64,000 nt of DNA from a virus. Under the pieces are notes generated by a model. It worked only from the letters and a program-made list of their open reading frames with translations, was not told where the DNA came from and did no database searches. Of the stretch, positions 3,465 to 63,251 are shown piece by piece (within the stretch, counting starts at the first letter, position 1; the number at the start of each line of letters is the position of its first letter). Location: IMG/VR virus record IMGVR_UViG_3300008117_000018, positions 32,001 to 96,000 of that record; one strand, written 5' to 3'. The position numbers and the translations under genes are program-made.

Positions 3465-3687
3465 TTTTAAGTACTTTATTAAGTTTATATTCTCTTTTAT
3501 CTTCTAATTCAATCGGCTCAACTATTAATTCACCATTTGATATTTTTATTTCCCATTTATTACCGGTTACATCATCTAAGAGCGCTAATTTAGTTATGAC
3601 ACAATATCCATCTGGCTCTATTCTAAGAACAGAATCACCAGATGAACTATTCACATTAAATACATTAGGTTGAAGTTTAACAGCCAT
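3457..3687 (-). CDS. Hypothetical protein, C-terminal REYKLNKVL motif
   Basis: ORF translationally coupled to the MTase (start overlaps its stop). Confidence 0.7.
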   Translation of the reverse strand: MAVKLQPNVFNVNSSSGDSVLRIEPDGYCVITKLALLDDVTGNKWEIKISNGELIVEPIELEDKREYKLNKVLKND

Positions 3688-4628
3688 TATAGTTTAATAC
3701 CAGTTTTAGGATCATAATTCATAATCAACAACTCAACACCTTTAGCTTGTTCAGTTTTAAGTTCGGAATTATTTCCACCATGAGCAGAGCTTCTGAAAAC
3801 CTCTTTCTCAGTCCAAACGTATTTATCTTTAGGTAATAACTCTTCTAAAAGTGGAAAATAATAATAAGAAAGAGACCAACGACACTTTGTTTTTTTAAGT
3901 AATTCTAATAACCTTCTATGAGAAGCTGGACCAAATACACCTTCTTTGTCAGCTCCATACCAAAAAAGTCTTTTAGCATCGTCCTCTCCGTTCTCATCTG
4001 GTCTAAAATAAGGAGGATCTAAATAAAGATAAGTATCTTCCGCATCATATTTAGTAATCAACTCTTCAAAGTCAATATTTAAAAATTCAGTAATTGATTG
4101 TAATTTATGAGTATATTTATTTTTCTTCAATTTATCAATGAGAACTTCTAATTTAAGACGGTCTTTATCTTTTTTATAACCATTGAAACCAGCACCTCGT
4201 GGATAAACCGAATTATGAGCAGATGTAATAAGAAAAGCATAAATAGCCGCCTTTTCAAAATCTCCAATTTCAAAGTTCATATCATCCAAGAAATCATTCT
4301 TTTGGTAGTCCTTATAAATCTTTTTATAAAAGTCCCATTTTTTTAATGGTTCTGTTTCAGTTGTGTGTAATAAAGTATTTTTTAAATTTTCCAAATAAGG
4401 TAAAAACTCTTCAGGTTGTGATGAACACTTATATAAGTTCACCTGGTGTCGATTTTTATCATTATAGATAACTACATCAAATTTAAGTTGATCGTCGTCC
4501 ATATACGTTCCCATTGAACCAGAAAAAGGCTCTAAATATGTTTTTATTCCAGTTTTTGGAATTTTTGTATTGATTAACTCCTGAAATGCAGAGGAACTTT
4601 TACCTCCAAAATAACTTATTACTGCCAT
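3687..4628 (-). CDS. DNA adenine methyltransferase, Dam/D12 class
   Basis: YFGGKS, YLEPFSGS (motif I), YND, YLDPPY (motif IV), W-S-L-S-Y, ELLIMNY. Confidence 0.9.
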   Translation of the reverse strand: MAVISYFGGKSSSAFQELINTKIPKTGIKTYLEPFSGSMGTYMDDDQLKFDVVIYNDKNRHQVNLYKCSSQPEEFLPYLENLKNTLLHTTETEPLKKWDFYKKIYKDYQKNDFLDDMNFEIGDFEKAAIYAFLITSAHNSVYPRGAGFNGYKKDKDRLKLEVLIDKLKKNKYTHKLQSITEFLNIDFEELITKYDAEDTYLYLDPPYFRPDENGEDDAKRLFWYGADKEGVFGPASHRRLLELLKKTKCRWSLSYYYFPLLEELLPKDKYVWTEKEVFRSSAHGGNNSELKTEQAKGVELLIMNYDPKTGIKL

Positions 4629-4637
4629 GTTTTATTT

Positions 4638-5123
4638 TTATTTTAATATTTGTTCTAATCCGGTTTTTTGTATGCCGTTGATTTCATCTCTTACTTTCAT
4701 TAATATTTTACCTAAATGATTTTCGCCTTTACCATTGAAGACGCCCCAAAAAGTATCTTTCCATAAATTGACCTCGACAATTTTAGCATCACCCGTCAAC
4801 TTTAGTAGTTCTGCGAGATTTTCGTCTTTGAATTTTTCTCTGATTGCAAAATTCATAATTTCAATTTTTTTTTCAGACCAATCTTTGCGAACTTTTATTT
4901 TTTGACCTATTTTTTTTACCACACCTGGTTCTTTTATTTTAGAAATCATTTCTCTAAAGTCAGCCGATGTATAATATTTTCCATTTAACATTTGATCCGA
5001 ATTAGATTTCATAGCAACATAAAAATGCTCAACTGTAGGATAGGTAATTCCCTGAAATTCAATTTTTGATTCATAAAAATTTGATAAAAAATAATATTTA
5101 CCTCTAAATTGCTCAATAGTCAT
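4638..5123 (-). CDS. NADAR (YbiA-like) family protein; likely start at MTIEQF (5123)
   Basis: FLSNFY, YPTVEH, DW, KF, L..TG, E...DTFWG, GENHLGKILMKVR. Confidence 0.92.
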   Translation of the reverse strand: MTIEQFRGKYYFLSNFYESKIEFQGITYPTVEHFYVAMKSNSDQMLNGKYYTSADFREMISKIKEPGVVKKIGQKIKVRKDWSEKKIEIMNFAIREKFKDENLAELLKLTGDAKIVEVNLWKDTFWGVFNGKGENHLGKILMKVRDEINGIQKTGLEQILK

Positions 5124-5144
5124 ATTTATTATACTATATAAAAC

Positions 5145-5168
5145 AAAAAAGTCCACTTTTGTGGACTT
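5145..5168 (-). terminator. Intrinsic terminator downstream of tmRNA
   Basis: AAGTCCAC-tttt-GTGGACTT hairpin followed by a U-run on the minus strand. Confidence 0.7.
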
Positions 5169-5176
5169 AATTTTAG

Positions 5177-5551
5177 TGGAGATGACGATGTACTGCCCAT
5201 CGTGTCTTCCCTAGTTAACAATAATTATTCATTCACAGGCTTAGAAAGTTTTTCGAAACTTACAAAATAGTTAGTTGAACAACCCATCACTCTAACAATT
5301 CTGGTTTCACATTTTTAACTGTGTGATTCAGCTGGAGAATTTTTTCGAAAGCTTAAAAGATTAAACTAAAGATAGCTCTTCTGCCTTAAGCATGTTGTTT
5401 TGTAACGCCGCTACTAAATCTTCACGGGATGCTACTTCATTTGTTTTGCCATTTACGACTTTTTGCCACCAAATTTATTAGTCGGTTACTTGACCATCCG
5501 ACACCTGCATAATCACCACTACTCTATGAATCTATACTAAAAAACATCCCC
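5177..5551 (-). ncRNA. ssrA: tmRNA (one-piece)
   Basis: 5' GGGGAUG pairs with 3' CAUCUCC-A, including the G3:U alanine identity pair. T-arm CGAUG-GGCAGUA-CAUCG. Internal tag ORF 5450-5361 starts after GUAAAU and reads GKTNEV... Length about 375 nt; CCA not encoded. Confidence 0.92.
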
Positions 5552-5612
5552 ATAGTTTATATTGTAATTATTTCTACAAATGTATATATAATATTATAAA
5601 ATACAAAAAAGT

Positions 5613-8425: not shown

Positions 8426-8809
8426 TCAAATTGTTATTTCTTCTGAATTTAGATAATCAACTTTTACTTGACCATCATTCATATTTGGCTCCTTCTTAAC
8501 AAACTTTCTTTGACAATATACAACTTTTACAGATGGCTCTTTAGCAGCTTTGCTATTTTTTTTAGCTAATTCCGCAGCATATTTCAATATCTCAGGTGTT
8601 GGTAAATTTTCTCTGACTCTAATTACAACATGGCTTCCAGGAACGCCTTTGACATGCATCCATATATCTTCATCTTCTGCTGTATTAAAGGTTAAAAAGT
8701 CATTAGATTTAGCGTCTCGACCAACCATTATTAAATAACCATCAACTTCTATTTTTTTGATGTCAGGAAATTTAACTTTTTTTGATTCAAAATATTTTAA
8801 ATATTTCAT
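8426..8809 (-). CDS. Stand-alone NFACT-R (DUF814) RNA-binding domain protein
   Basis: VGRDAKSNDFLT, DIWMHVKGVPGSHVVI, AAELA..NS, V.Y.QRKFVKK, GQV. Confidence 0.9.
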   Translation of the reverse strand: MKYLKYFESKKVKFPDIKKIEVDGYLIMVGRDAKSNDFLTFNTAEDEDIWMHVKGVPGSHVVIRVRENLPTPEILKYAAELAKKNSKAAKEPSVKVVYCQRKFVKKEPNMNDGQVKVDYLNSEEITI

Positions 8810-8884: not shown

Positions 8885-10609
8885 TTAGTTTAATAATCCA
8901 TAAGAATCAGAAACTTTAATAGTCATAAACTGTTTTTGTGGGAACCAACCAACTTCAGCAACAGCATATCTAGATCTCAACAACATTCTTGGAGCAAAAG
9001 TAGCCTCAGAAATCAAAGAGATTGATTGTGCCATTAAATAAGGTACGAAAATGATACCTGGTTGATCAGGATTGTTCTTTCTACCAAGAACGATTCTGTT
9101 ATCATTATATCTCATATATGGATCAACGTAGATAGAAATATCACCGATTGAACCAACAGGATATAATTGACCTTGTCCGTTTAACTTAGACTTAACTGGG
9201 TTAATAGTGTAACCAGAAATATCAGCTAAAGCAGCAGCAAGACCCCCGTTTGTGATAAGGTATTGAGCTGGACCTACACGACCTTCAGTTGCAATGTAGT
9301 TAGAAGCGTGAGCAATTTTAGTGATAAGTTTTCTTTGTACGGCGTGAGTAGTTTCACCACCAACTGTACTAGTTACATAAGTAGTATCTAAGTCAAAGAT
9401 TGTTTGGCTAGCAATATTAGTTGAGAAAGTTAATCCAGCTAAAGGCGCGCTAGTTCTGTTAAGATCACCCATTTCAAAAATCTTAGCAACGATTTGCTTA
9501 GAAATTGTTTGAGATAATTCATTAACAAGAATAGATTCCATTTTTTGAACGATATCCATACCTGTGTTAGCTTTGATATCTTCAATTTCAGTTCTTCTAA
9601 GAGCTGAAGATACTTCAATAGTACCAACTGCGATAGTTTTAGAAGAGATTTTTGGTCCGATAACTCCAGAATATCTTGAGTCATCTTGATCTCTATCCAT
9701 TGGATATTGTCCAGAGAATTGAGAAGTTGAACCAGAGTTCCAGTTTGCAGAAAAACCAGGGATATGATCTTCTAACGCAGAAACCAATTCGATTGCAGGC
9801 TCACCACCTAAAGCAGTACCACCTAAAGCAATGATTTGAGAAGCCATAGACGTTGTAGAATCAAATGTATTTCTTGTTGTATCAAAAGCCCAAGTTGTAG
9901 CTGCAGAACCAACCGCTGTATGAGACGTGTTGAATTGTCTGTAAGCTCTGAACATTGGATAACCATCAATTCTTGAGAATCCTAAAAATTCAACTTTATT
10001 TTCTTTATCAGATGGCTCTGAAGTAATTGCAGCACCTGTATCGATGTTATTCCAAATTCTACCATTTAAACCACCTGTAGTTTCGCTAATAACTGGAGAA
10101 GAAGCTGCTAACTGAGCTCTAAGACCAGCGATAACTGCTGTTAATTTAGTAGAAGTCAATCCTGCTGTTTTAGGAGCAATTTTGAAAACTTGTGGTCTTT
10201 CATCTTCATTTCCTAAACGAGTATCATCGTATTGGAAGTCGATGTAAAGAAGGTCGATTTTCGGACCTGGAGATGGTTTAACAGCAACAAGGTCAAGACC
10301 GATTGTTTGAGCAGCAATTTTCATAGCTACAGGAAGTAAGTTTTGACCTACATCTCCTGAACCATTTGAACCACCAAAACCAGCCCAATTGTTACCAATT
10401 GTTGAACCAGCTAAAGTTGAAGGTTGTGGAGCAACAACACCACCCATACCAGCAACGTTAGAAGCATTCACATAAGCGTTCTCGTTGATTGAGTGGAACT
10501 CAGCATATTCTGACATCCAATCAATTCTCTCACCAGTAACACCCATGTTCTCAAGAACTGGAGACCATTTCTTGATAGCTTTAGATTTGTCTATTCTAAT
10601 GTGTGACAT
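8885..10609 (-). CDS. gp23: Major capsid protein (T4 gp23-like)
   Basis: KKWSPVLE N-terminus, IGLDLVAVKP, ILVNELSQTISKQI, IYVDPY, IIFVPY, TFAPRMLLRSRYA; strongly biased codon usage. Confidence 0.93.
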   Translation of the reverse strand: MSHIRIDKSKAIKKWSPVLENMGVTGERIDWMSEYAEFHSINENAYVNASNVAGMGGVVAPQPSTLAGSTIGNNWAGFGGSNGSGDVGQNLLPVAMKIAAQTIGLDLVAVKPSPGPKIDLLYIDFQYDDTRLGNEDERPQVFKIAPKTAGLTSTKLTAVIAGLRAQLAASSPVISETTGGLNGRIWNNIDTGAAITSEPSDKENKVEFLGFSRIDGYPMFRAYRQFNTSHTAVGSAATTWAFDTTRNTFDSTTSMASQIIALGGTALGGEPAIELVSALEDHIPGFSANWNSGSTSQFSGQYPMDRDQDDSRYSGVIGPKISSKTIAVGTIEVSSALRRTEIEDIKANTGMDIVQKMESILVNELSQTISKQIVAKIFEMGDLNRTSAPLAGLTFSTNIASQTIFDLDTTYVTSTVGGETTHAVQRKLITKIAHASNYIATEGRVGPAQYLITNGGLAAALADISGYTINPVKSKLNGQGQLYPVGSIGDISIYVDPYMRYNDNRIVLGRKNNPDQPGIIFVPYLMAQSISLISEATFAPRMLLRSRYAVAEVGWFPQKQFMTIKVSDSYGLLN

Positions 10610-10693: not shown

Positions 10694-12784
10694 TTATAAA
10701 TTTTTGAATCTTTCTAAGATTGCTTGAGCTTCATTGTCTGAGATTTTATCTTCTTGGATAAGTGCCTCATGTGAAACTAATTTCTTAGTAACTGATTCAT
10801 TCTTTTTGAGATTTCTAGTCAACCAGAAATGCTCAACTTGTGCTTCAGTTTTTAATACATCTTCTGGATAAAGTCTTGCTTGAGAAAGCAATGATTTTTT
10901 AGAAGACTCATTTAACTGATTCCAGACTGGCTTAACGTTTTCAGGCATCAATCTGATAACTCTTTCTTCAAGAGTCTCGTTCTTAGTTGATAATGCTTCT
11001 GCGATCAGACCTAACACATCTTTCTGTGTGAAATAACTTCTTTCGTTTATGTGAAGTTTTACAGTTTCCTGTTCTTCGTCTGATAATGCATAAAAGCTAT
11101 CTACTTGTGACTTGTTTAAGAACTTTAAGAAATTCAAGTCAGTAGTTTCAGAAACTTTACGTTTTTTAGCTTCTTCAATAAGTTTATTAATAGATTCTGA
11201 TAATTCAGTATCGTCTTTTCCTGTTACTTCGTAAGAAGATGGACCACATTCTTCCTCTTCTTCCTCTTTATTATGAACGTGAGTCGCTTCAGCAGCTGGA
11301 ACACCATTCATGTTATATTCTGCTTCTTCATCATCTTCTTTATTCCAAGAATTTTCTTTTTCATCATCTTCAACCATTTCAAAACCAGCAGCGTTTAAAG
11401 AAGGAAATGCACCTTCTGATTCGAATAATTTACCACCATTTAATTTTTCAACGATTAATCCTTGATAAGAAATTGATTTATCTAAGCTTTCAGCGATGTA
11501 TTCAGAGTAAGCAATATTATCATCTAAATGTTCAGCGATGTATTCAGAGTAAGCAATATTACCTTCAACATGCTCTGCTAAATACTCAGAATAAGCAATA
11601 GAATTATCAACATGTTCAGCTATATACTCAGCATAAGCAATGTTTTTATCTAAGTTTTCAGCGATGTATTCAGAGTAAGCAATATTTTTGTCTAAGTTTT
11701 CAGCCAAATATTCAGAGTAAGCAATATTTTTGTCTAAGTTTTCAGCCAAATATTCAGAATAAGAAATGTTTTTGTCTAAGTTTTCAGCGATATATTCAGA
11801 ATAAGAAATATTCTTATCAAGATTCTCAGCTAAATACTCTGAGTACTCAATATTTTTATCTAAATTTTCAGCAACATACTCTGTGTAATTAATAGCCTTT
11901 TCTAAGTTTTCAGCTAAATAATCATTGTGTTTAACTAATTTTTCAGTCGTAGATTTAAGAGATTTGTTCTCATTTACAACAACTTGAATTTTCTCAGCTA
12001 AATAATCTAAGTATTTTACCACTTTAGAATTTGTCTCGTTTAACTCCTCATAATACTCAAGTAGTTGTTCTAATTTTTTAGGACTCATATTTCCTTTAGA
12101 AATTGCATTTTTGACTTCTTTCTTAGTAGAGGCAATCTCATTTACTAAGTATTGTGAATAATCAGTCAACTGTTTTTTTGTTACGAATTCGTTTTTGTTC
12201 ATGTTGAATAATTCATTTATTTTAGACTCGTCGGACATTTCATATATCCTAAAGTTAGATTGTGGATTGTATCCTAAGGACTCATTCAAAACTTTAACAC
12301 TCATTTTTGCAGAAGCAAAACCTGGGTCAGCTACTATATCATATGTGAAAAGTTTTTTCAAAGAAACAGAACCATCAGATTCAGTGATACCAGCTGCTCT
12401 TGATGATACAAATACTGGACAACCATCATCAACCAAAGCCTTTGCCTCTTTACCCCAATAAGTTGATAAAAGTTTAATTTCACCAGATACTAAGTTTTGT
12501 TCTTTAATGTATTGCGCTTTAGTGATTGTGTGAGATGCTCTTGCCAAAGATGTATCAAAAACATCTGGGTGGTCAAATTCACCATAAACAGCACCTAAAC
12601 TATTCATTCTTTCGTTTAATTCATCTAAGGCAGGAAGGAATTTATCTGCAGTATAGATTCTTTCGTTTCTATTCTTAACACCAAATTCCGTGAATGTACC
12701 TCCTAAGATATAATCCTTCTTACTAGAAGAATTTTCTCTAATAAGAGAATTAGTTGAGTTTTCTACTATTAAAACTGGTTTCAT
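10694..12784 (-). CDS. gp21: Prohead protease (gp21-like) fused to a scaffold/core-like coiled coil
   Basis: NRNERIY, GEFDHP, SH, VSSRAAG, TYDIVADPGF; long repeat-containing C-terminal coiled coil. Confidence 0.9.
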   Translation of the reverse strand: MKPVLIVENSTNSLIRENSSSKKDYILGGTFTEFGVKNRNERIYTADKFLPALDELNERMNSLGAVYGEFDHPDVFDTSLARASHTITKAQYIKEQNLVSGEIKLLSTYWGKEAKALVDDGCPVFVSSRAAGITESDGSVSLKKLFTYDIVADPGFASAKMSVKVLNESLGYNPQSNFRIYEMSDESKINELFNMNKNEFVTKKQLTDYSQYLVNEIASTKKEVKNAISKGNMSPKKLEQLLEYYEELNETNSKVVKYLDYLAEKIQVVVNENKSLKSTTEKLVKHNDYLAENLEKAINYTEYVAENLDKNIEYSEYLAENLDKNISYSEYIAENLDKNISYSEYLAENLDKNIAYSEYLAENLDKNIAYSEYIAENLDKNIAYAEYIAEHVDNSIAYSEYLAEHVEGNIAYSEYIAEHLDDNIAYSEYIAESLDKSISYQGLIVEKLNGGKLFESEGAFPSLNAAGFEMVEDDEKENSWNKEDDEEAEYNMNGVPAAEATHVHNKEEEEEECGPSSYEVTGKDDTELSESINKLIEEAKKRKVSETTDLNFLKFLNKSQVDSFYALSDEEQETVKLHINERSYFTQKDVLGLIAEALSTKNETLEERVIRLMPENVKPVWNQLNESSKKSLLSQARLYPEDVLKTEAQVEHFWLTRNLKKNESVTKKLVSHEALIQEDKISDNEAQAILERFKNL
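11466..11926 (-). repeat. About 11 tandem 42-nt repeats encoding SEY(L/I)AENLDKNI(A/S)Y
   Basis: Visible directly in both DNA and protein. Confidence 0.9.
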
Positions 12785-55032: not shown

Positions 55033-56895
55033 TTAAAAATACGTAGTTACTACAACAATCCCATCACCACCACGGCCACCAGCACCTGATACAACACCAA
55101 CACCAACATTACTTGAAGCAGCACCACCACCACCTCCGCCTCCATATAGACCACCAGCGGATCCAGAACCGGCTGCAATATTACTAGAGCCTCCGCCTCC
55201 GCCTCCTTGACCAAACAAAGTTCCAGCAACTTGACTCAAAGCAAGACCACCACTTGCAGCAATAGGACCACCGTTTGTATCACCTGTAATAAATATTTGT
55301 CTTATGTTACCACCACTTCCACCAGATTGTAAAGCATTAGCCGAACTAATTGAGCCTCCGCCTCCGCCTCCGCTCGGTCCATATGGTATTTCAGCACCAT
55401 CATCCGCAGTAGCAGCCGTATTCGATCTACCTCCATTAGCAGGGTTAGTTAGATAAGTATTACCAACACCTCCAATCGGTGGAAGTATACTTTTAGCAGA
55501 AGAGCCACCAAAACCGGCGCCTCCGCCTCCAGCAAAAGAAAAAGTTCCAAAAAGACTATTACCACCAGCCGAACCAGGTCTACCATTAGTTGAGTCAGTT
55601 GCTTGAGAACCACCTCCTGTACCAGATGTACCAACTGTAACCGAGACAGTAGATGGCAAATCTTGACCGATGAAATTAGTAACAGAAACACCACCACCTC
55701 CACCACCATCACCACCCATTCTAGTAGAAGAAGCAGCACCTCTTCTACCAGAGCCACCTCCACCACCAGCACCAATAAGAATAACATTTACTAATTTAGC
55801 TCCATTTGGTTTAGTCCAAGTAGAATTTGAGGTATAAACTTGGACATTTGAAGCACTAACGTTTCCTTGACCCGACGTACCAGAAGTAGAACCTGACGTA
55901 CCAGAAGTACCAGAGGTAGTTGCTTGACCTCTTGTTCCAGATGTACCTTCAGAAGCTTGAGTACCAGATGTACCAAATGTTCCACTCGTTCCACTTGTAC
56001 CATTTGAACGACTTATTCCAGATGTACTAATACCACTTGTTCCAGATGTAGATGAGAGTGCAGAAAAGCCAACTATTGATGAACCACTTGTTCCAGCAGT
56101 AGAAACACCACCTGAACTTCCCGAGGTACCGGATGTTGAAACATCACCATTAGTACCAGATGTTCCTTTAGTACCGGAAGTAGCAACTTGACCCGTTGTT
56201 CCAGCAGTACCAGACTGACCAGATGTACCATTAGTACCAGATGTACCCTGAGTACCAGATGTACCAGATTGACCAGATGTTCCAGCAGTTCCAGTTTGTA
56301 CACCGGATGTACCGGATGTACCAGATTGAGTAGAAACAGCATTTGTAGTTATGTTACCTGATGTACCAGATGTCGTAAGAGAAGCATTTGCAGTTGAAAT
56401 ACCAAAATTACCAGATGTTCCGGATGTATTAGAGTTCCCGGATGTTCCGGATGTGTTAGATGTTCCTGATGTTCCTGATGTTGTTATTTGACCTCTTGTA
56501 CCAGAGGTACTTGATAAACCAGATGTTCCAGCAGTCGTTGATAAAGTATTATTAGTTGATATTCCAGAGAGACTACTGACTGAAGAAAAACCCTGTGTAC
56601 CAGATGTTCCAGATGTTCCATTTGTACCAGATGTTCCAGATGTTCCATTTGTACCAGATGTTGCATTAAAAACAGCACCTGAGCTACCAGAAGTTGAATT
56701 CTGACCAGATTGACCAGATTGACCATTTGTACCAGAAGTATTTGAAATACTACTATTTCCAGATGCACCGGATGACAAAGAATTTCCAGAAGTACCGCTG
56801 GTTTTAGAAGAACCATTTGTACCAGAAAGTCCATTTGTACCAGACGTTCCACTCTGTATTAAACCACTAACACTATTAATTTTAGATAACGACAT
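55033..56895 (-). CDS. Gly-Thr-Ser repeat fibre-like protein with C-terminal glycine-rich domain (paralog 3)
   Basis: TSG triplets; [24 protein letters not shown]...[12 protein letters not shown]; own late box. Confidence 0.8.
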
Positions 56896-56905
56896 AATTT
56901 ATATA

Positions 56906-58780
56906 TTAAAATCTAGTAATGACAACAACCACACCGTCACCACCATCACCACCACGACCCGAACTAAATCCGTTAGTAGAAGCACCTCCGCCTCCGCCAC
57001 CACCTCCATATAGACCACCATCACCTCCCCTGCCTCCAGGAGTAAGCGCGATATTACTTCCAGCACCACCACCAGCACCACCTCTTCCCAATAAAGAAGC
57101 ATCTGAACCAGGTCCAGTTTGACCATTTACCCCAACAGCTGCACCAGCAGCAAATATTGTACTATTATCAACCGTCAATATTGACCCACCGTTTCCTCCA
57201 GTCCCGAATACATTAGTAGCAGAAATGTTACCACCACCTCCACCACCAGTCGGTTTATAAGGAGTATCCTCAGCAGCACCACCCGATGTTCCACCATCAC
57301 CAGTATTACCTGAAGTTCCTGGATAATTAACATCACCACCAATACCACCGGTACTAAATGAAGCGGTTTTACCACCATCTCCACCTCGACCACCTCCCAC
57401 AGTCAAATAGACATTAGCACCAGTAATATAATCACCAAATATAGTATCGTCACCATTATTACCATCATTACCGTTTGTGTTTATAGTTGAAATTGCAGCA
57501 CCACCACCACCACCAGCACCCGGATTACAAAGCACACTAGATGGTAGTATTGAGGCATTAATAAGAACTCTAACATGTCCTCCTGAACCACCACCAGATC
57601 CACCGAATCTTGTTCTACCAGAAGCATTCAAAGCACCAGAACCACCACCACCGCCACCACCTATACAAATGACCTCAACCATTTTAGCACCGCTTGGTTT
57701 AGTCCATGTAGCATTTACAGCCGAATAGGTATTAATTTGTATAGAAACAGCACTGGTACCACTTGTACCAAAAGTACCCGATGTTCCCGAAAACCCACCA
57801 GAACCGGAAGTTCCAGAGGTTCCACCAGTTTTTGAGATACCAGAAGTTCCGGATGTTTGAGATGTTCCTGAAGAACCACTAAGAGTACCAAAACCAGAAG
57901 TTCCTGAAGTAGTACCAGATGTACCGGAAGTAGATGATAAACCAGAAGTACCGGAAGTTCTGAATGCACTAGATGTACCCGAATTACCACTATTTCCTGT
58001 TGTTCCTGAAGTACCACTATTACCATTAGTTCCAGATGTTCCAGAAGTCGATGATAAACCAATTGTACCTGATGTACCTCGTGTACCACTAGTACCAGAA
58101 CCACTTGATACACCAGAACCACCAGAAAATGAAGAGACACTTGATACCCCAGAACTTCCTGATGTACTTGAATTTCCAGATAAAGAAGAAGTTCCAGATG
58201 TACCAGAAGTTCTACTTTGACCAGAACTTCCTGATGTACCTGTAGTTCCTGAACTACCCGATGTTCCAGAAGTAGTCAATCCAGAGGTACCGGAGGTTGA
58301 CGAATTTGCGGAGGTTCCTGATGTATTTGAAGTTCCAAAAGTTCCAGAAGTTGATGAGTTATTACTCAAACCAGAAGTTCCAGAAGTAGTATTCAAACCA
58401 TTAGAAAAAGAATTACCGGACGTCCCTGATGTCGTATTGACACCGGATGTACCGGAGGTTGTATTAATACCTGATGTTCCAGAAGTATTTGAAGAATTAC
58501 TTATGCCAGATGTACCAGATGTACCAAATCCTCCAGATGTACCAGAAGTATTGTTATTTCCAGATGTACCAGAAGTATTGTTATTTCCAGATGTACCAGA
58601 TGTTCTAGTTAAACCGGATGTTCCAGCGGTTGAAGATAAACCAGATGTTCCTGAAGAACTATTATTACCAGAACTACCACTAGTGCCGTTGGTTCCTGAT
58701 GTACCAGAACTACCAGAAGTCGATGATAAACCAGATGTACCGGATGTATTATAATTTACACTATCTATTTTATTTATCAT
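56906..58780 (-). CDS. Gly-Thr-Ser repeat fibre-like protein with C-terminal glycine-rich domain (paralog 2)
   Basis: TSG triplets; WTKPSGAKMVEVICIGGGGGGGSG...GGDGVVVVITRF; own late box. Confidence 0.8.
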   Translation of the reverse strand: MINKIDSVNYNTSGTSGLSSTSGSSGTSGTNGTSGSSGNNSSSGTSGLSSTAGTSGLTRTSGTSGNNNTSGTSGNNNTSGTSGGFGTSGTSGISNSSNTSGTSGINTTSGTSGVNTTSGTSGNSFSNGLNTTSGTSGLSNNSSTSGTFGTSNTSGTSANSSTSGTSGLTTSGTSGSSGTTGTSGSSGQSRTSGTSGTSSLSGNSSTSGSSGVSSVSSFSGGSGVSSGSGTSGTRGTSGTIGLSSTSGTSGTNGNSGTSGTTGNSGNSGTSSAFRTSGTSGLSSTSGTSGTTSGTSGFGTLSGSSGTSQTSGTSGISKTGGTSGTSGSGGFSGTSGTFGTSGTSAVSIQINTYSAVNATWTKPSGAKMVEVICIGGGGGGGSGALNASGRTRFGGSGGGSGGHVRVLINASILPSSVLCNPGAGGGGGAAISTINTNGNDGNNGDDTIFGDYITGANVYLTVGGGRGGDGGKTASFSTGGIGGDVNYPGTSGNTGDGGTSGGAAEDTPYKPTGGGGGGNISATNVFGTGGNGGSILTVDNSTIFAAGAAVGVNGQTGPGSDASLLGRGGAGGGAGSNIALTPGGRGGDGGLYGGGGGGGGASTNGFSSGRGGDGGDGVVVVITRF

Positions 58781-58791
58781 AACTATATATA

Positions 58792-60702
58792 TTAAGTAAA
58801 ATAAGTTGTAACAACAACAATTCCATTCGCACCAAAACCACCGTTTCCAAACTTATCACCACGAGGTATGTTATCGCCATTAAGACCAGCACCACCGCCT
58901 CCACCGCCTGCACCATAAAGAGCACCATTAGCACCAATACCGGATCTAGCAGCTCCTCCACCTCCTCCACAACCAATATCAGAAAAAGAATCACCCTCAT
59001 TACCATCAGTTAATGATGGGTCAGTACTAGCAATTCCAGGATTACCACCTAAACCGTTGGTATATTGAACTGTACCACCATCTCCCCCGTCGAAATTAGT
59101 ATTACTAGCGTTTATACTACCACCACTACCTCCACCAGTTGGTGCTCTGAATGTGAGAGCACCAGCAACACCAATACCACCAGCACTATTTCCACCAGAA
59201 CCTCCACGTTCAATATTACCATAACCACCTGAATTGTTAGAAGTCGGAATACTAGCAGATGAACCACCTCCACCACCTCCACCACCAAAAGCAATTAGGT
59301 TACTACCAAATCCAGAACCTAGTGCTGAAGTACCAAATATCGAATCAGTACCCGCGGCACCATCACTTCCATCTTGATTATTGGCAGTCACTACTCCTCT
59401 ACTACCACCCTGACCAACCTGAACCGTCTCTGAGTTTTGTAAATCAGAAGCCCTGAAAATAGCTCGTGAAAAACCTCCACCACCTCCACCATTACCACCC
59501 CATCGAGCAGTACTAGTAGCTGACCTTCTACCAGCACCTCCTCCTCCGCCACCACCAATACAAATCACTTCAACCTTATCTGCATTTGCAGGCTTTGACC
59601 AACTAAAAATTGTTGTAAGTGGACTAGCAATAACCGTGTAAACCTGAACATCAATAACATTCAGTGTACCGGATGTTCCAGATGTTCTTGATAAACCAGA
59701 AGGAGCAATAGCTCCTTGACTAGTTGATATACCAGAAGTTCCACTTGTCGTAGCATTAGGAAAAGAAGATTGAAAACCAGAAAAATTTGGATTATTACCG
59801 GTAGTTCCTGAAGTACCTTGTGTACCAGATGTACCTACAGCTCTGCTAAGACCACCCGTACCAGAGCTACCAGAGGTACCATTGGTTGAATTTAATCCAG
59901 CAGTACCACTAGTAGAAAAATTGGTTGATATTCCTGTGTTACCACTACTACCAGATGTTGTGGAAAATCTGTTACCACCACTCTCTCCACTCGTACCAGA
60001 AGTTCTAGATAGACCGTTAGTAGTCAGACCTGATGTTCCATTTGTTCCTGAAACCGAAACAAAACTACTTGAGGTTCCAGACGATCCAGCGGTACTCTGT
60101 GGCGTTTGAGCAGATATACCTGAATTTCCAAATGTACCAGATGAACCAGAGGTCAATGAAACCCTGCTTGAACCAGAATTTGATGAATTTGATGAATTTC
60201 CAGACGTACCAGAAGTTTTATTTGAACCAGATGTTCCACTTGTACCATTCGTACCTGATGTAGAAGAATTTCCAGCGGTTCCTGTAGTACCATTTGCTGA
60301 AGACTGACCAGAAGTACCGGAAGTTGAATTTGTACCAGAAGTGGATGATTGGCTTGACAAACCAGACGTACCACTCGTACCATTAGTTCCAGAAGTAGAA
60401 GAATTTCCAGCGGTTCCTGTAGTACCATTACTTCTTGAATTACCAGCCGTGCCTGATGTAGAAGAGGTACCAGCTGTTGAATTTATACTTGAAATCCCAC
60501 TTGAACCTGAAGTACCAGAACTACCAGAACTACCGGATGTTGTAGATAAACCACTAGTACCTGTTGTACCAGAACTACCAGAAGTACCAGAAGTACCAGA
60601 AGTAGAACTTACTAAGCTATTAGTAGATTGTCCAGATGTACCAGATTGACCATTTGTACCGGACGTACCAGTATCTATAACAATACCATTTATTTTCTGC
60701 AT
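58792..60702 (-). CDS. Gly-Thr-Ser repeat fibre-like protein with C-terminal glycine-rich domain (paralog 1)
   Basis: TSG triplets; [24 protein letters not shown]...[13 protein letters not shown]; own late box. Confidence 0.8.
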   Translation of the reverse strand: MQKINGIVIDTGTSGTNGQSGTSGQSTNSLVSSTSGTSGTSGSSGTTGTSGLSTTSGSSGSSGTSGSSGISSINSTAGTSSTSGTAGNSRSNGTTGTAGNSSTSGTNGTSGTSGLSSQSSTSGTNSTSGTSGQSSANGTTGTAGNSSTSGTNGTSGTSGSNKTSGTSGNSSNSSNSGSSRVSLTSGSSGTFGNSGISAQTPQSTAGSSGTSSSFVSVSGTNGTSGLTTNGLSRTSGTSGESGGNRFSTTSGSSGNTGISTNFSTSGTAGLNSTNGTSGSSGTGGLSRAVGTSGTQGTSGTTGNNPNFSGFQSSFPNATTSGTSGISTSQGAIAPSGLSRTSGTSGTLNVIDVQVYTVIASPLTTIFSWSKPANADKVEVICIGGGGGGGAGRRSATSTARWGGNGGGGGGFSRAIFRASDLQNSETVQVGQGGSRGVVTANNQDGSDGAAGTDSIFGTSALGSGFGSNLIAFGGGGGGGGSSASIPTSNNSGGYGNIERGGSGGNSAGGIGVAGALTFRAPTGGGSGGSINASNTNFDGGDGGTVQYTNGLGGNPGIASTDPSLTDGNEGDSFSDIGCGGGGGAARSGIGANGALYGAGGGGGGAGLNGDNIPRGDKFGNGGFGANGIVVVTTYFT

Positions 60703-60726
60703 GTCTTATATATTAAAATACAAGTC

Positions 60727-63251
60727 TTACAATTCTATCCAATCTTGAGAAGGATTAAAATAAATTCTTCTATTTGTAGAAGTTCCTATTACATAACCTA
60801 TGACTCTTACAATATTTCCAGCAGAAGAAGGCGCAGCAGCGACTGTTCTACCAGCTGTTGAAGAACTCAAAAATAATGGCTCTCCTATATTACCAACGGT
60901 GAATAAAGAAGAACGATAGAAGCCTCTTACTAACATACCATCATTGGTTGAGTTTGTGCCAATTGCAACGGCTAATAAATCATTTCCGCCATTTACCAAT
61001 ACATCACCTTGTGCTTTAGTCCAAGTACCACCGGTATTTAGGTAGTAAATTTCACCAGCAACAGTTGTTGTATTTCCAAAATTAACAATATCACCATAAC
61101 CGGTGCTATCAGCCGATAAATAAGTATTGGATGTAGGGTCAGATATTAAATCATAACTACCAGATAATACTAAATTTGTACCATCAAAAGTAAAGTTTGG
61201 TTCACCATCTAATGTAGAAGCAGTACCAGTCATAGTAACAACTCTGTTATTAGAATTACCATTTAGTGTGACCGTCGCTGAGTTGCCAGATGTTCCAGAA
61301 GTTCCTTGGTTTGTTGTTATAAACAATAATAAATCAATTGAATTACTAAAGTTAGTAGTACCTGTTCCACCAGAATCTATATAAGTTACCGGAAATGAAT
61401 AGTAGTTATTAGAAACAAAAGTTGGATTAGAATTTACTTTCCAAGTCTGATAATTATTTGAATTTGTTCTATCTTGAATTATAATATTCTGACCAATTTG
61501 CATCAACCCTAGAAATACATCAATATCATCACTATTTGTAGTAAAATGATCGATGTTGATAATAGTAGAAGCTGTCTGACCTGAGCTATTCCAAATTATG
61601 AAACCTGGTCCTGGATCTCCACTGAATATTGTTGTGTTGGATTGATACGGAAATACATTGGACGAACCACCGTTTAAACCACTAGTACCGGAAGTTCCTT
61701 TAGTTCCGGAAGTTCCAGCAGTTCCATTGGCACCATTAGCACCGGAAGTTCCGGTAGTTCCATTAGCACCATTAGCACCCGAGGTTCCAGCAGTTCCGTT
61801 AGCACCATTAGCACCCGAGGTTCCAGCAGTTCCGTTAGCACCATTAGCACCGGAAGTTCCTGATGTTCCGTTAGCACCATTTGCACCAGAAGTTCCTGAT
61901 GTTCCGTTAGCACCATTTGCACCAGAAGTTCCTGATGTTCCATTAGCACCGGAAGTTCCTGATGTTCCATTAGCACCGGAAGTTCCGGCAGTTCCATTAG
62001 CACCCGAGGTTCCAGCAGTTCCGTTAGCACCATTAGCACCCGAAGTCCCCGAAGTCCCAGCAGCTGAATTGATTGTTAATATGTTACCATTTGTATCAAA
62101 ACCAAGAGCTCCAATAGAAGTTCCTGGAAATTTACCAGCGGTGTTATAATTAGGTAGTTGTAATTGACCAGTCAAATGATTTATTTGTAAATCAACAGCA
62201 CTTGAAGTAGTATTATTTCCTTTAAGTATTCTAAAGGAGTCTTGATAGTTATCTATAGCAGAAGCTGTACCATATCCAGAACCAGATTGAAGTGTTATTT
62301 GACCACCTTCACCAGAACCTCCTCTTGCGCCCAGAAATAAAGTAGCCTCTGTTGATGAATAAGTTGTTCCTATTAGAACGGATATTGAATTCTGTGTCGA
62401 AGACTGCGTAACTGTCATCCATGTTGAAGCAACAGCAGCATTTGTAGAACCATCTGACAATAAAACACGTAAATTGCCAGCATTACTGATTGTGTTGAAA
62501 CCTGTTCCAGAAGTACCTGATGTTCCGTTAGCACCCGAGGTTCCAGCAGTTCCGTTAGCACCATTAGCACCCGAGGTTCCAGCAGTTCCGTTAGCACCAT
62601 TAGCACCAGAAGTTCCAGCAGTTCCGTTAGCACCGTTAGCACCCGAGGTTCCAGAAGTGCCATTAATTCCAGAGGTTCCGGATGTTCCCGATACCCCATC
62701 AAGACCATTTAATAAAATCCAATCATTAAGTGAAGATGGAACATTATTATTATTATTTGCAGTGGATTGATAAGAAAACAAACCATCAATACAGCAGCAC
62801 CGTTAACACCGGATGTCCCAGAAGAACCTGATGTACCATTATCTCCTTGATTACCGGAAGTTCCTGATGTACCATTATCTCCTTGATTACCGGAAGTTCC
62901 AGCAGTCCCATTATTTCCATTAACACCGGAAGTTCCAGCAGTTCCGTTAGCACCATCTACACCAGAAGTTCCTGATGTTCCATTAGAACCTGTTGCACCC
63001 ATGCCAGATGTACCTGATTGTTTTAAAACTAAATTCCCATCTAAAATACCACCATAAAACCAATATTCTACTATGGGATCAGAACCAACAATAATACCAA
63101 CCGTCAAACCTTCATATCTATAAGATGGTAATAAGTAAGTAGTTGCTGCCGAAAGAGCTGCTGATAAGTTGGCACCAGTATATGGACCATATTTGGCATC
63201 ACCGGGACCTGTAGTTTTAGCTAGTATGTTATCACTTAAATTAATTGCCAT
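60727..63251 (-). CDS. Collagen-like (GTS/GAN) fibre protein split by a frameshift near 62790 (track ORFs 62709..63251 plus 60727..62781)
   Basis: Repeats continue across a frame change at ...GCT GCT GT ATT GAT GGT...; the C-terminus of the 180-aa ORF is out-of-frame junk and the downstream ORF has no credible start. Confidence 0.7.

Follow-up and report, generated by a model that had tools for sequence, protein, structure and literature searches.

On the minus strand of the window, as the whole analysed stretch of 64,000 nucleotides is called here, positions 5551-5177 attracted attention as a possible phage tmRNA gene with an unusually long tag. The window is a part of a 111-kb IMG/VR contig. 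According to an earlier note on this DNA, a canonical tag of about 15 residues ending in VAA had been extended to 29 residues because a stop codon TAA had turned into TTA, and the degron had become hidden in this way. The locus raises the question of whether a tmRNA that the standard finders do not see is real, whether its long tag goes back to the loss of a stop codon or belongs to a whole phage family, and what would become of the proteins that carry it.

A divergent one-piece tmRNA gene and its family

Standard finders fail at this locus. No tmRNA was called in the window by ARAGORN, at default or at permissive settings, and none by Rfam, even at E-values of up to 10; ARAGORN also returned nothing at 12 related loci, those of LR745206 and LR756502 included. 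The failure of ARAGORN is probably explained by the T-loop, which in the window and in most relatives is GGCAGUA instead of the canonical UUCRANY, a sequence that is typical, though not strictly defining. Two of the most divergent relatives, L025 and L028, retain a T-loop of the UUCG type. Together with L064, they match the Rfam tmRNA model RF00023 over positions 1-374, but their scores of 33-37 bits, with E-values between 2e-11 and 1e-9, stay under the gathering threshold of 47; the window gives no match, and control tmRNAs of Flavobacteriaceae score 69-135 bits. In one Flavobacteriaceae tmRNA (L236 1503-1894 (-), Rfam 135 bits), ARAGORN reported VNIERKAL as the tag, located internally where a tag is implausible; this looks like a mis-called resume codon.

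The family was assembled by pattern scans of IMG/VR followed by nhmmer, which gave 71 loci, or 56 unique sequences, all of them on phage contigs, the longest of which has 483 kb. A BLASTN search against phage records returned two matches only, LR745206 (634 kb, with an identity of 77%) and LR756502 (642 kb, 69%), which are the nearest GenBank relatives of the window. Both seem to belong to the four largest genomes described by Al-Shayeb et al. 2020 (PMC7162821), where genomes above 634 kb were assigned to the Mahaphage clade with Bacteroidetes as predicted hosts. A scan of 185,579 species genomes for the tag core, limited to exact matches to one pattern, produced 37 matches, none of which was homologous to the tmRNA by nhmmer, and pointed to no cellular source or host of the family.

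The assignment of the gene is based on its consensus structure (Table 1). RNAalifold, applied to 24 diverse members, recovered the acceptor stem, the long helix H2, the first stem of the pseudoknot PK1, a hairpin inside the tag frame, downstream hairpins and the T-arm; a covariation scan supplied the second stem of PK1 and an H5-like hairpin. In the combined structure of 11 helices and 66 pairs, 96.1% of the cells are paired, compared with 36-50% when the partners are slid by 1-3 columns. Compensatory changes occur in 30 pairs, compared with 3-8 in the slid controls, and the observed values of pairing and covariation were attained in none of 500 shuffles. The pairs were counted on a MAFFT alignment in which the window and L026 are offset by two columns at the 5' end, and this offset is the cause of the few acceptor-stem cells that count as "unpaired". 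The single-sequence fold of the tmRNA shows no stability above that of shuffles (z -0.39).

Table 1. Elements of the tmRNA gene and of its tag frame, with the adjoining terminator, in coordinates of the window
Feature	Coordinates	Strand	Remarks
One-piece tmRNA (ssrA) gene, 375 nt	5177..5551	-	Homologous to 71 loci; covarying consensus structure
tmRNA ends	5551; 5177	-	5' GGGGAUG at 5551; discriminator A at 5177
Acceptor stem, 5' strand GGGGAUG	5545..5551	-	G3 of G3:U70 at 5549; partner CAUCUCC 5184-5178
Long helix H2, 5' strand	5503..5530	-	Partner 5207-5240; several pairs covary, e.g. CG 12, UA 7, AU 3 at one position
Pseudoknot PK1	5465..5502	-	Stem 1 GUCGG 5502-5498 with CCGAC 5485-5481; stem 2 GUCA 5494-5491 with UGGC 5468-5465
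Resume context GUAAAU, U-A-A at -5 to -3	5451..5456	-	UAAA invariant in the family; UAA matches the RF00023 consensus just 5' of the resume codon
Tag reading frame	5364..5450	-	29 codons, GKTNEVASREDLVAALQNNMLKAEELSLV; 27-30 codons kept in 56 unique sequences
Hairpin inside the tag frame	5408..5427	-	CCGU 5427-5424 with GCGG 5411-5408; compensatory changes in 4 of 4 pairs
Codon 16, TTA (Leu), singled out in the earlier note	5403..5405	-	In the family always Leu, never a stop
H5-like hairpin, 3' part of the frame	5375..5391	-	GCUU with GAGC; compensatory changes in 3 of 4 pairs
Tag stop codon TAA	5361..5363	-	Invariant in 24 of 24 aligned sequences
Downstream pseudoknot region	5247..5326	-	Supported stems UCAC/GUGA (5326-5323 with 5310-5307) and AGUUU/AAACU (5260-5256 with 5251-5247)
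Long helix H2, 3' strand, includes CUAAGCCUGUGAAUGAAUA	5207..5240	-	Consensus structure and pair counts
T-arm, 6-bp stem ACGAUG/CAUCGU, loop GGCAGUA	5185..5203	-	Strands 5203-5198 and 5190-5185; compensatory changes in 5 pairs
Acceptor stem, 3' strand CAUCUCC	5178..5184	-	7-bp stem
Intrinsic terminator, 8-bp stem followed by a T-run	5141..5168	-	Just past the tmRNA 3' end; 2 terminator-like sites against 0.1 expected

The acceptor stem with its G3:U70 pair and the discriminator A are those of a tRNA-Ala-like molecule. The G:U pair is kept in every correctly aligned row, and pair 5 of the stem covaries between A-U, G-U and G-C. CCA is not encoded at the 3' end, where the sequence continues with CTA (5176-5174). 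H2, which occupies the place of the anticodon arm, consists of 23 pairs, each 97-100% paired. In PK1, three of the four pairs of stem 2 show compensatory changes, and the closing pair of stem 1 is AU in 18 sequences and GC in 6. By its structure, the sequence at 5551-5177 (-) is a real but divergent one-piece tmRNA.

The long tag and codon 16

The tag was read correctly in the earlier note, coordinates included: GUAAAU is directly followed by the resume codon GGC (5450-5448), which opens a run of 29 sense codons with TTA at 5405-5403 and the stop TAA at 5363-5361. The possibility, also raised there, that translation resumes in another frame did not hold, since codon periodicity and the resume codon of RF00023 both support the GGC frame. 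In the Rfam alignments of the relatives, the resume codon of the model falls on the GGC of the family. Over codons 1-20 of 24 aligned relatives, the entropy is 0.56 bits at the third position versus 0.32 and 0.34 bits at the other two, both shifted frames misplace the variable codon position, and all four GCN codons are in use at codon 15. The tag frame is beyond chance. A frame that begins one base upstream (AUG GCA AAA … UAG, 6 codons) was considered and rejected, as the pattern of variation does not fit it.

In the tag frame of the window, no in-frame ATG, GTG or TTG precedes codon 20, so that ordinary initiation cannot yield the conserved N-terminal part of the tag. The frame contains no in-frame TAG or TGA and stops at TAA; alternative genetic codes therefore leave the reading unchanged. 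The resemblance between the first 15 residues and the Bacillus tag, on which the idea of a canonical tag had leaned, turned out to be superficial, the relatives beginning with GNVNEV or DNVSEV.

If a canonical tag ending in VAA had lost its stop, by mutation of TAA to TTA or through a sequencing error, the degron would be buried and the products would escape ClpXP. It is true that TTA is one base away from TAA, that residue 15 closes an LVAA motif and that the tag does not end in Ala-Ala. However, the family alignment has largely refuted this explanation. Codon 16 is CTA in 45 of the 56 unique sequences, TTA in 7, CTT in 2 and CTC in 2; it encodes leucine in every one of them and is mostly CTA, and the TTA of the window is thus a synonymous C-to-T variant of CTA rather than the result of a change in TAA. 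Nine further contigs of IMG/VR, which come from other datasets, share this TTA, and the recurrence argues against a sequencing error. No member among the 56 stops after VAA, and the most divergent ones, L025, L028 and L153, also have tags of 29-30 codons, of which GKTNEVASREELVAALRNNILKVNEVAVA is an example. The LVAA motif itself is replaced by LVFA in about one third of the members and by LVAT or IVSA in others, and residues 9 and 14 are encoded by the two covarying strands of an RNA hairpin, which leaves the hidden degron without support. The loss of a stop codon in a shorter tag is very improbable; to the claim of a one-base change, the answer is negative and ordinary, codon 16 being a conserved leucine.

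The extension, by contrast, withstood the alignment of related phage tmRNAs that the same note had suggested as a check. The 56 unique sequences contain 36 distinct tags, each of 27-30 residues, and the last residue is V in 41 and A in 15 of the sequences, with no tag ending in AA. The tag of the window, 29 residues with the end LV, likewise lacks the Ala-Ala end typical of a ClpX-type degron. The C-terminal half differs by subfamily and may read QNNMLKAEELSLV, KAIGAKTPELV or RNNILKVNEVAVA.

The hairpin inside the frame couples residue 9 (Arg/Lys) with residue 14 (Ala/Phe) in the combinations CCGU/GCGG and CAAA/UUUG. Since the codons of these residues are the two strands of a covarying hairpin, this stretch of the peptide is in part determined by the fold of the RNA, and a part of the amino-acid conservation could stem from the RNA and not from the function of the peptide. 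Taken to its end, this would mean that the RNA rescues ribosomes, that rescue alone is selected and that the tag is no degradation signal but a neutral spacer or helix kept mainly by RNA structure. The two covarying hairpins within the frame and the C-terminal half that varies between subfamilies are consistent with such a role, as is the general knowledge that in many bacteria the essential part of trans-translation is the release of ribosomes and not proteolysis. However, the variability of third positions and the fourfold synonymous use at codon 15 indicate selection on the peptide, the length is fixed at 27-30 codons, and the final residue is always V or A. It is unlikely that the tag has no part in degradation.

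Partner genes and the fate of tagged proteins

Partner genes were searched for in five near-complete relatives of 385-642 kb, namely LR745206, LR756502 and contigs of 483, 436 and 385 kb. All five encode a full-length SmpB (E 1e-50 to 1e-54, an equivalog-level match), and none of them contains another tmRNA, as only tRNA-sized matches and no canonical tmRNA were found. A nucleotidyltransferase of the CCA-adding type is encoded by four of the five. No complete AlaRS was found in the five genomes, one of which has a short fragment, and none of them encodes Lon. Four relatives possess 2-3 genes of ClpP each, while one relative that is 95% complete has none. An AAA+ protein of about 705 aa similar to ClpC is encoded by all five; it aligns with residues 154-803 of B. 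subtilis ClpC, which means that the N-domain is missing, and it keeps the VGF loop, the ClpP-docking motif.

In the relatives, the genes of SmpB and the Clp proteins are not clustered with the tmRNA but lie scattered across hundreds of kb. Neither SmpB nor ClpP is encoded on the window's own 111-kb contig; as this contig is only a fragment, the co-occurrence of the tmRNA with SmpB rests on the relatives. In two genomes, a short ClpP-like gene (E about 1e-27, profile positions 45-180) is located 2-3 kb from smpB (LR756502 364599-368013; G002 79293-81875), and in G002 a thioredoxin gene adjoins smpB.

These data also bear on the suggestion that the RNA is not a working tmRNA at all but a decoy titrating host SmpB, a degenerating copy, a small protein gene of the ordinary kind or some other RNA. 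Several observations speak against the tmRNA call: ARAGORN and Rfam miss the copy in the window, its T-loop GGCAGUA is non-canonical, the relatives score below the Rfam gathering threshold, and the 111-kb fragment carries no SmpB. There is also the tmRNA of phage DS6A, which is a tRNA-like domain alone (PMC4131195). Nevertheless, the architecture of the present gene is full-length, with covariation in every tested helix, and its frame is intact in all 56 unique sequences and offers no start codon for ordinary translation. Moreover, the phage SmpB found in all near-complete relatives has no other tmRNA that could serve it. A non-working RNA seems highly improbable.

The best reading of the locus, to which a probability of about 80% is given as a whole, is that of a huge-phage tmRNA-SmpB system, which on sequence grounds would be a working one, with a lineage-specific long tag that is probably ancestral to the family as a whole and kept by selection. 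Charging, tagging and the fate of the tagged proteins are predicted from the observed identity, structure and frame of the gene, the conservation of its tag and its co-occurrence with a phage SmpB. The precursor would be trimmed, and CCA would then be added, because it is not encoded. Host alanyl-tRNA synthetase would charge the tmRNA via G3:U70, and the charged molecule, together with the phage's own SmpB, would enter ribosomes stalled on broken mRNAs. Translation would resume at GGC (5450), and the stalled product would receive Ala and 29 residues with the end Leu-Val. The internal LVAA would not act as a buried degron, a part of it being set by the RNA hairpin.

The most likely fate of the tagged products is proteolysis signalled by the conserved hydrophobic V/A terminus, since the invariant hydrophobic end suggests a C-terminal degron. 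The protease that reads it is possibly other than host ClpXP: the lack of Ala-Ala and the presence of the phage's own ClpC and ClpP leave room for such a reader. Of the earlier proposal of a phage tmRNA with altered handling of its products, the phage tmRNA, the long tag and the missing canonical Ala-Ala have stood, and a long tag without an Ala-Ala end makes handling unlike that of a host-type tag possible; a degron hidden through the change of TAA to TTA is not supported.

A more specific proposal is that the tag is a degron private to the phage and that the products of the tmRNA-SmpB system go to the phage ClpC without N-domain and to ClpP, not to host ClpXP. This would constitute an orthogonal pathway of quality control and amino-acid recycling, insulated from the host SsrA-ClpXP, and the altered T-loop may tie the tmRNA to the phage's own SmpB. 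The ClpC-like protein of about 705 aa with its VGF loop in five of five relatives, the 2-3 ClpP genes in four of them and the small ClpP-like gene 2-3 kb from smpB in two genomes fit this proposal, and so do the conserved core and the V/A end of the tag, which are unlike the tags of the host phylum. For such a change of reader there is a precedent: in Mesoplasma, Lon recognises a longer tag (PMC9382460). On the other side, the genes concerned are dispersed in the relatives across hundreds of kb, ClpP is missing from one relative of 95% completeness, none of these genes is on the window's own contig, and the phage homologues of ClpP may have other roles. A dedicated route through phage ClpC and ClpP is possible but rather doubtful.

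Comparison with known systems and genomic neighbourhood

In its layout, the gene resembles the standard bacterial tmRNA (SsrA, RF00023). The common features include the G3:U70 acceptor stem and discriminator A, H2 and PK1 before the resume codon, UAA at -5 to -3, a resume codon that starts with G, a start-less frame closed by UAA, a downstream pseudoknot region, the T-arm and an SmpB partner in the lineage. Unlike the standard molecule, the phage family is invisible to ARAGORN, has the T-loop GGCAGUA and two covarying hairpins in frame, and occurs on phage contigs only. The tag of the Flavobacteriaceae tmRNA L237, as called by ARAGORN, is GESNFAMAA, about 9 residues with an AA end, whereas the tag of the window has 29 residues and an LV end.

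Neither tmRNA-SmpB systems in phages nor long phage tags are new. In huge phages, genes of tmRNA and SmpB were reported by Al-Shayeb et al. 2020 (PMC7162821), with the tmRNAs called by ARAGORN; the phage group and the system are the same as here, but the tag of the window's lineage is not described there. As that survey was based on ARAGORN, which makes no call in LR745206 and LR756502, the tmRNA of this lineage was probably not counted. Lists of ssrA genes in phages, among them those of Bacillus phage G and of mycobacteriophages of the Bxz1 group, go back to 2014 at the latest (PMC4131195). These genes are phage-borne like that of the window, but they belong to another lineage with other hosts and are found by ARAGORN. 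The tag of phage G is AKLNITNNELQVA, which ends in VA, not AA (PMC12484599); it has 13 residues versus 29 in the window, and neither of the two tags ends in AA.

In Mesoplasma and Mycoplasma, the ssrA tag is also longer than usual and has a recognition end that is not of the AA type, which has been tied to a switch of the protease to Lon (PMC9382460). The sequences of these tags are unrelated to that of the window, their tmRNAs are cellular, and the phage relatives of the window encode no Lon. Mitochondrial (jakobid) tmRNAs and two-piece alphaproteobacterial tmRNAs have a T-loop of the GGCAGUA type, as the window has, and the Rfam mt-tmRNA consensus agGCaGUau lies over the window's GGGCAGUAC. 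However, the gene of the window is unpermuted and full-length and has a long frame, and its Rfam matches to these groups are weak (16.2 and 14.4 bits). The likeness of the T-loops is probably convergent.

What is new is a lineage invisible to both ARAGORN and Rfam, with an unusual T-loop and a tag of 27-30 residues that contains structured RNA in frame. Since both standard detectors miss the tmRNA of this lineage, surveys that rely on them undercount the ribosome-rescue systems of phages, and the undercount extends to the largest phage genomes on record. A tag three times as long as that of the host phylum, kept in dozens of phages without Ala-Ala, provides a testable case for a reader other than ClpXP. 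If it is true that phage ClpC and ClpP read the tag, the lineage would possess a natural orthogonal degradation system, of value for phage biology and as a tool.

Upstream of the tmRNA, within 5552-5585 (-), a block ATAATTACAA is located 5-12 nt 5' of the gene and is conserved between the window and the two GenBank relatives (L001 and L002); in two of these three sequences, TTTG is found further upstream. The block could be a phage-specific promoter. A scan for promoters of the sigma-70 type picks a different site, 5647-5619.

Directly downstream of the tmRNA terminator lies a gene with a NADAR domain (4638-5156 (-), E 3e-25), and beside it the gene of a D12-class adenine methyltransferase (3687-4628 (-)). 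On the other side, the gene at 8426-8809 (-) encodes a protein of 127 aa with an NFACT-R RNA-binding domain (Pfam E 1.5e-17) and a weak NCBIfam match to RqcH (E 9e-7). The ribosome-quality-control factor RqcH contains NFACT-R in its C-terminal part, and as the gene of the 127-aa protein is 3 kb from the tmRNA, a second element related to ribosome rescue may be close by. At 8885-10609 (-) lies the gene of a major capsid protein similar to Gp23 of T4 (E 1e-27), adjoined by that of a 696-aa protein (10694-12784 (-)) with a weak match to a prohead protease (E 0.002). At 55033-63251 (-), the window contains an array of five genes that are paralogues of one another, with collagen-type repeats, a glycine-rich C-terminal domain or both (PF21722, PF01391); their products are probably fibre proteins. 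Where this array lies, the G+C fraction increases from about 0.29 to 0.39-0.43.
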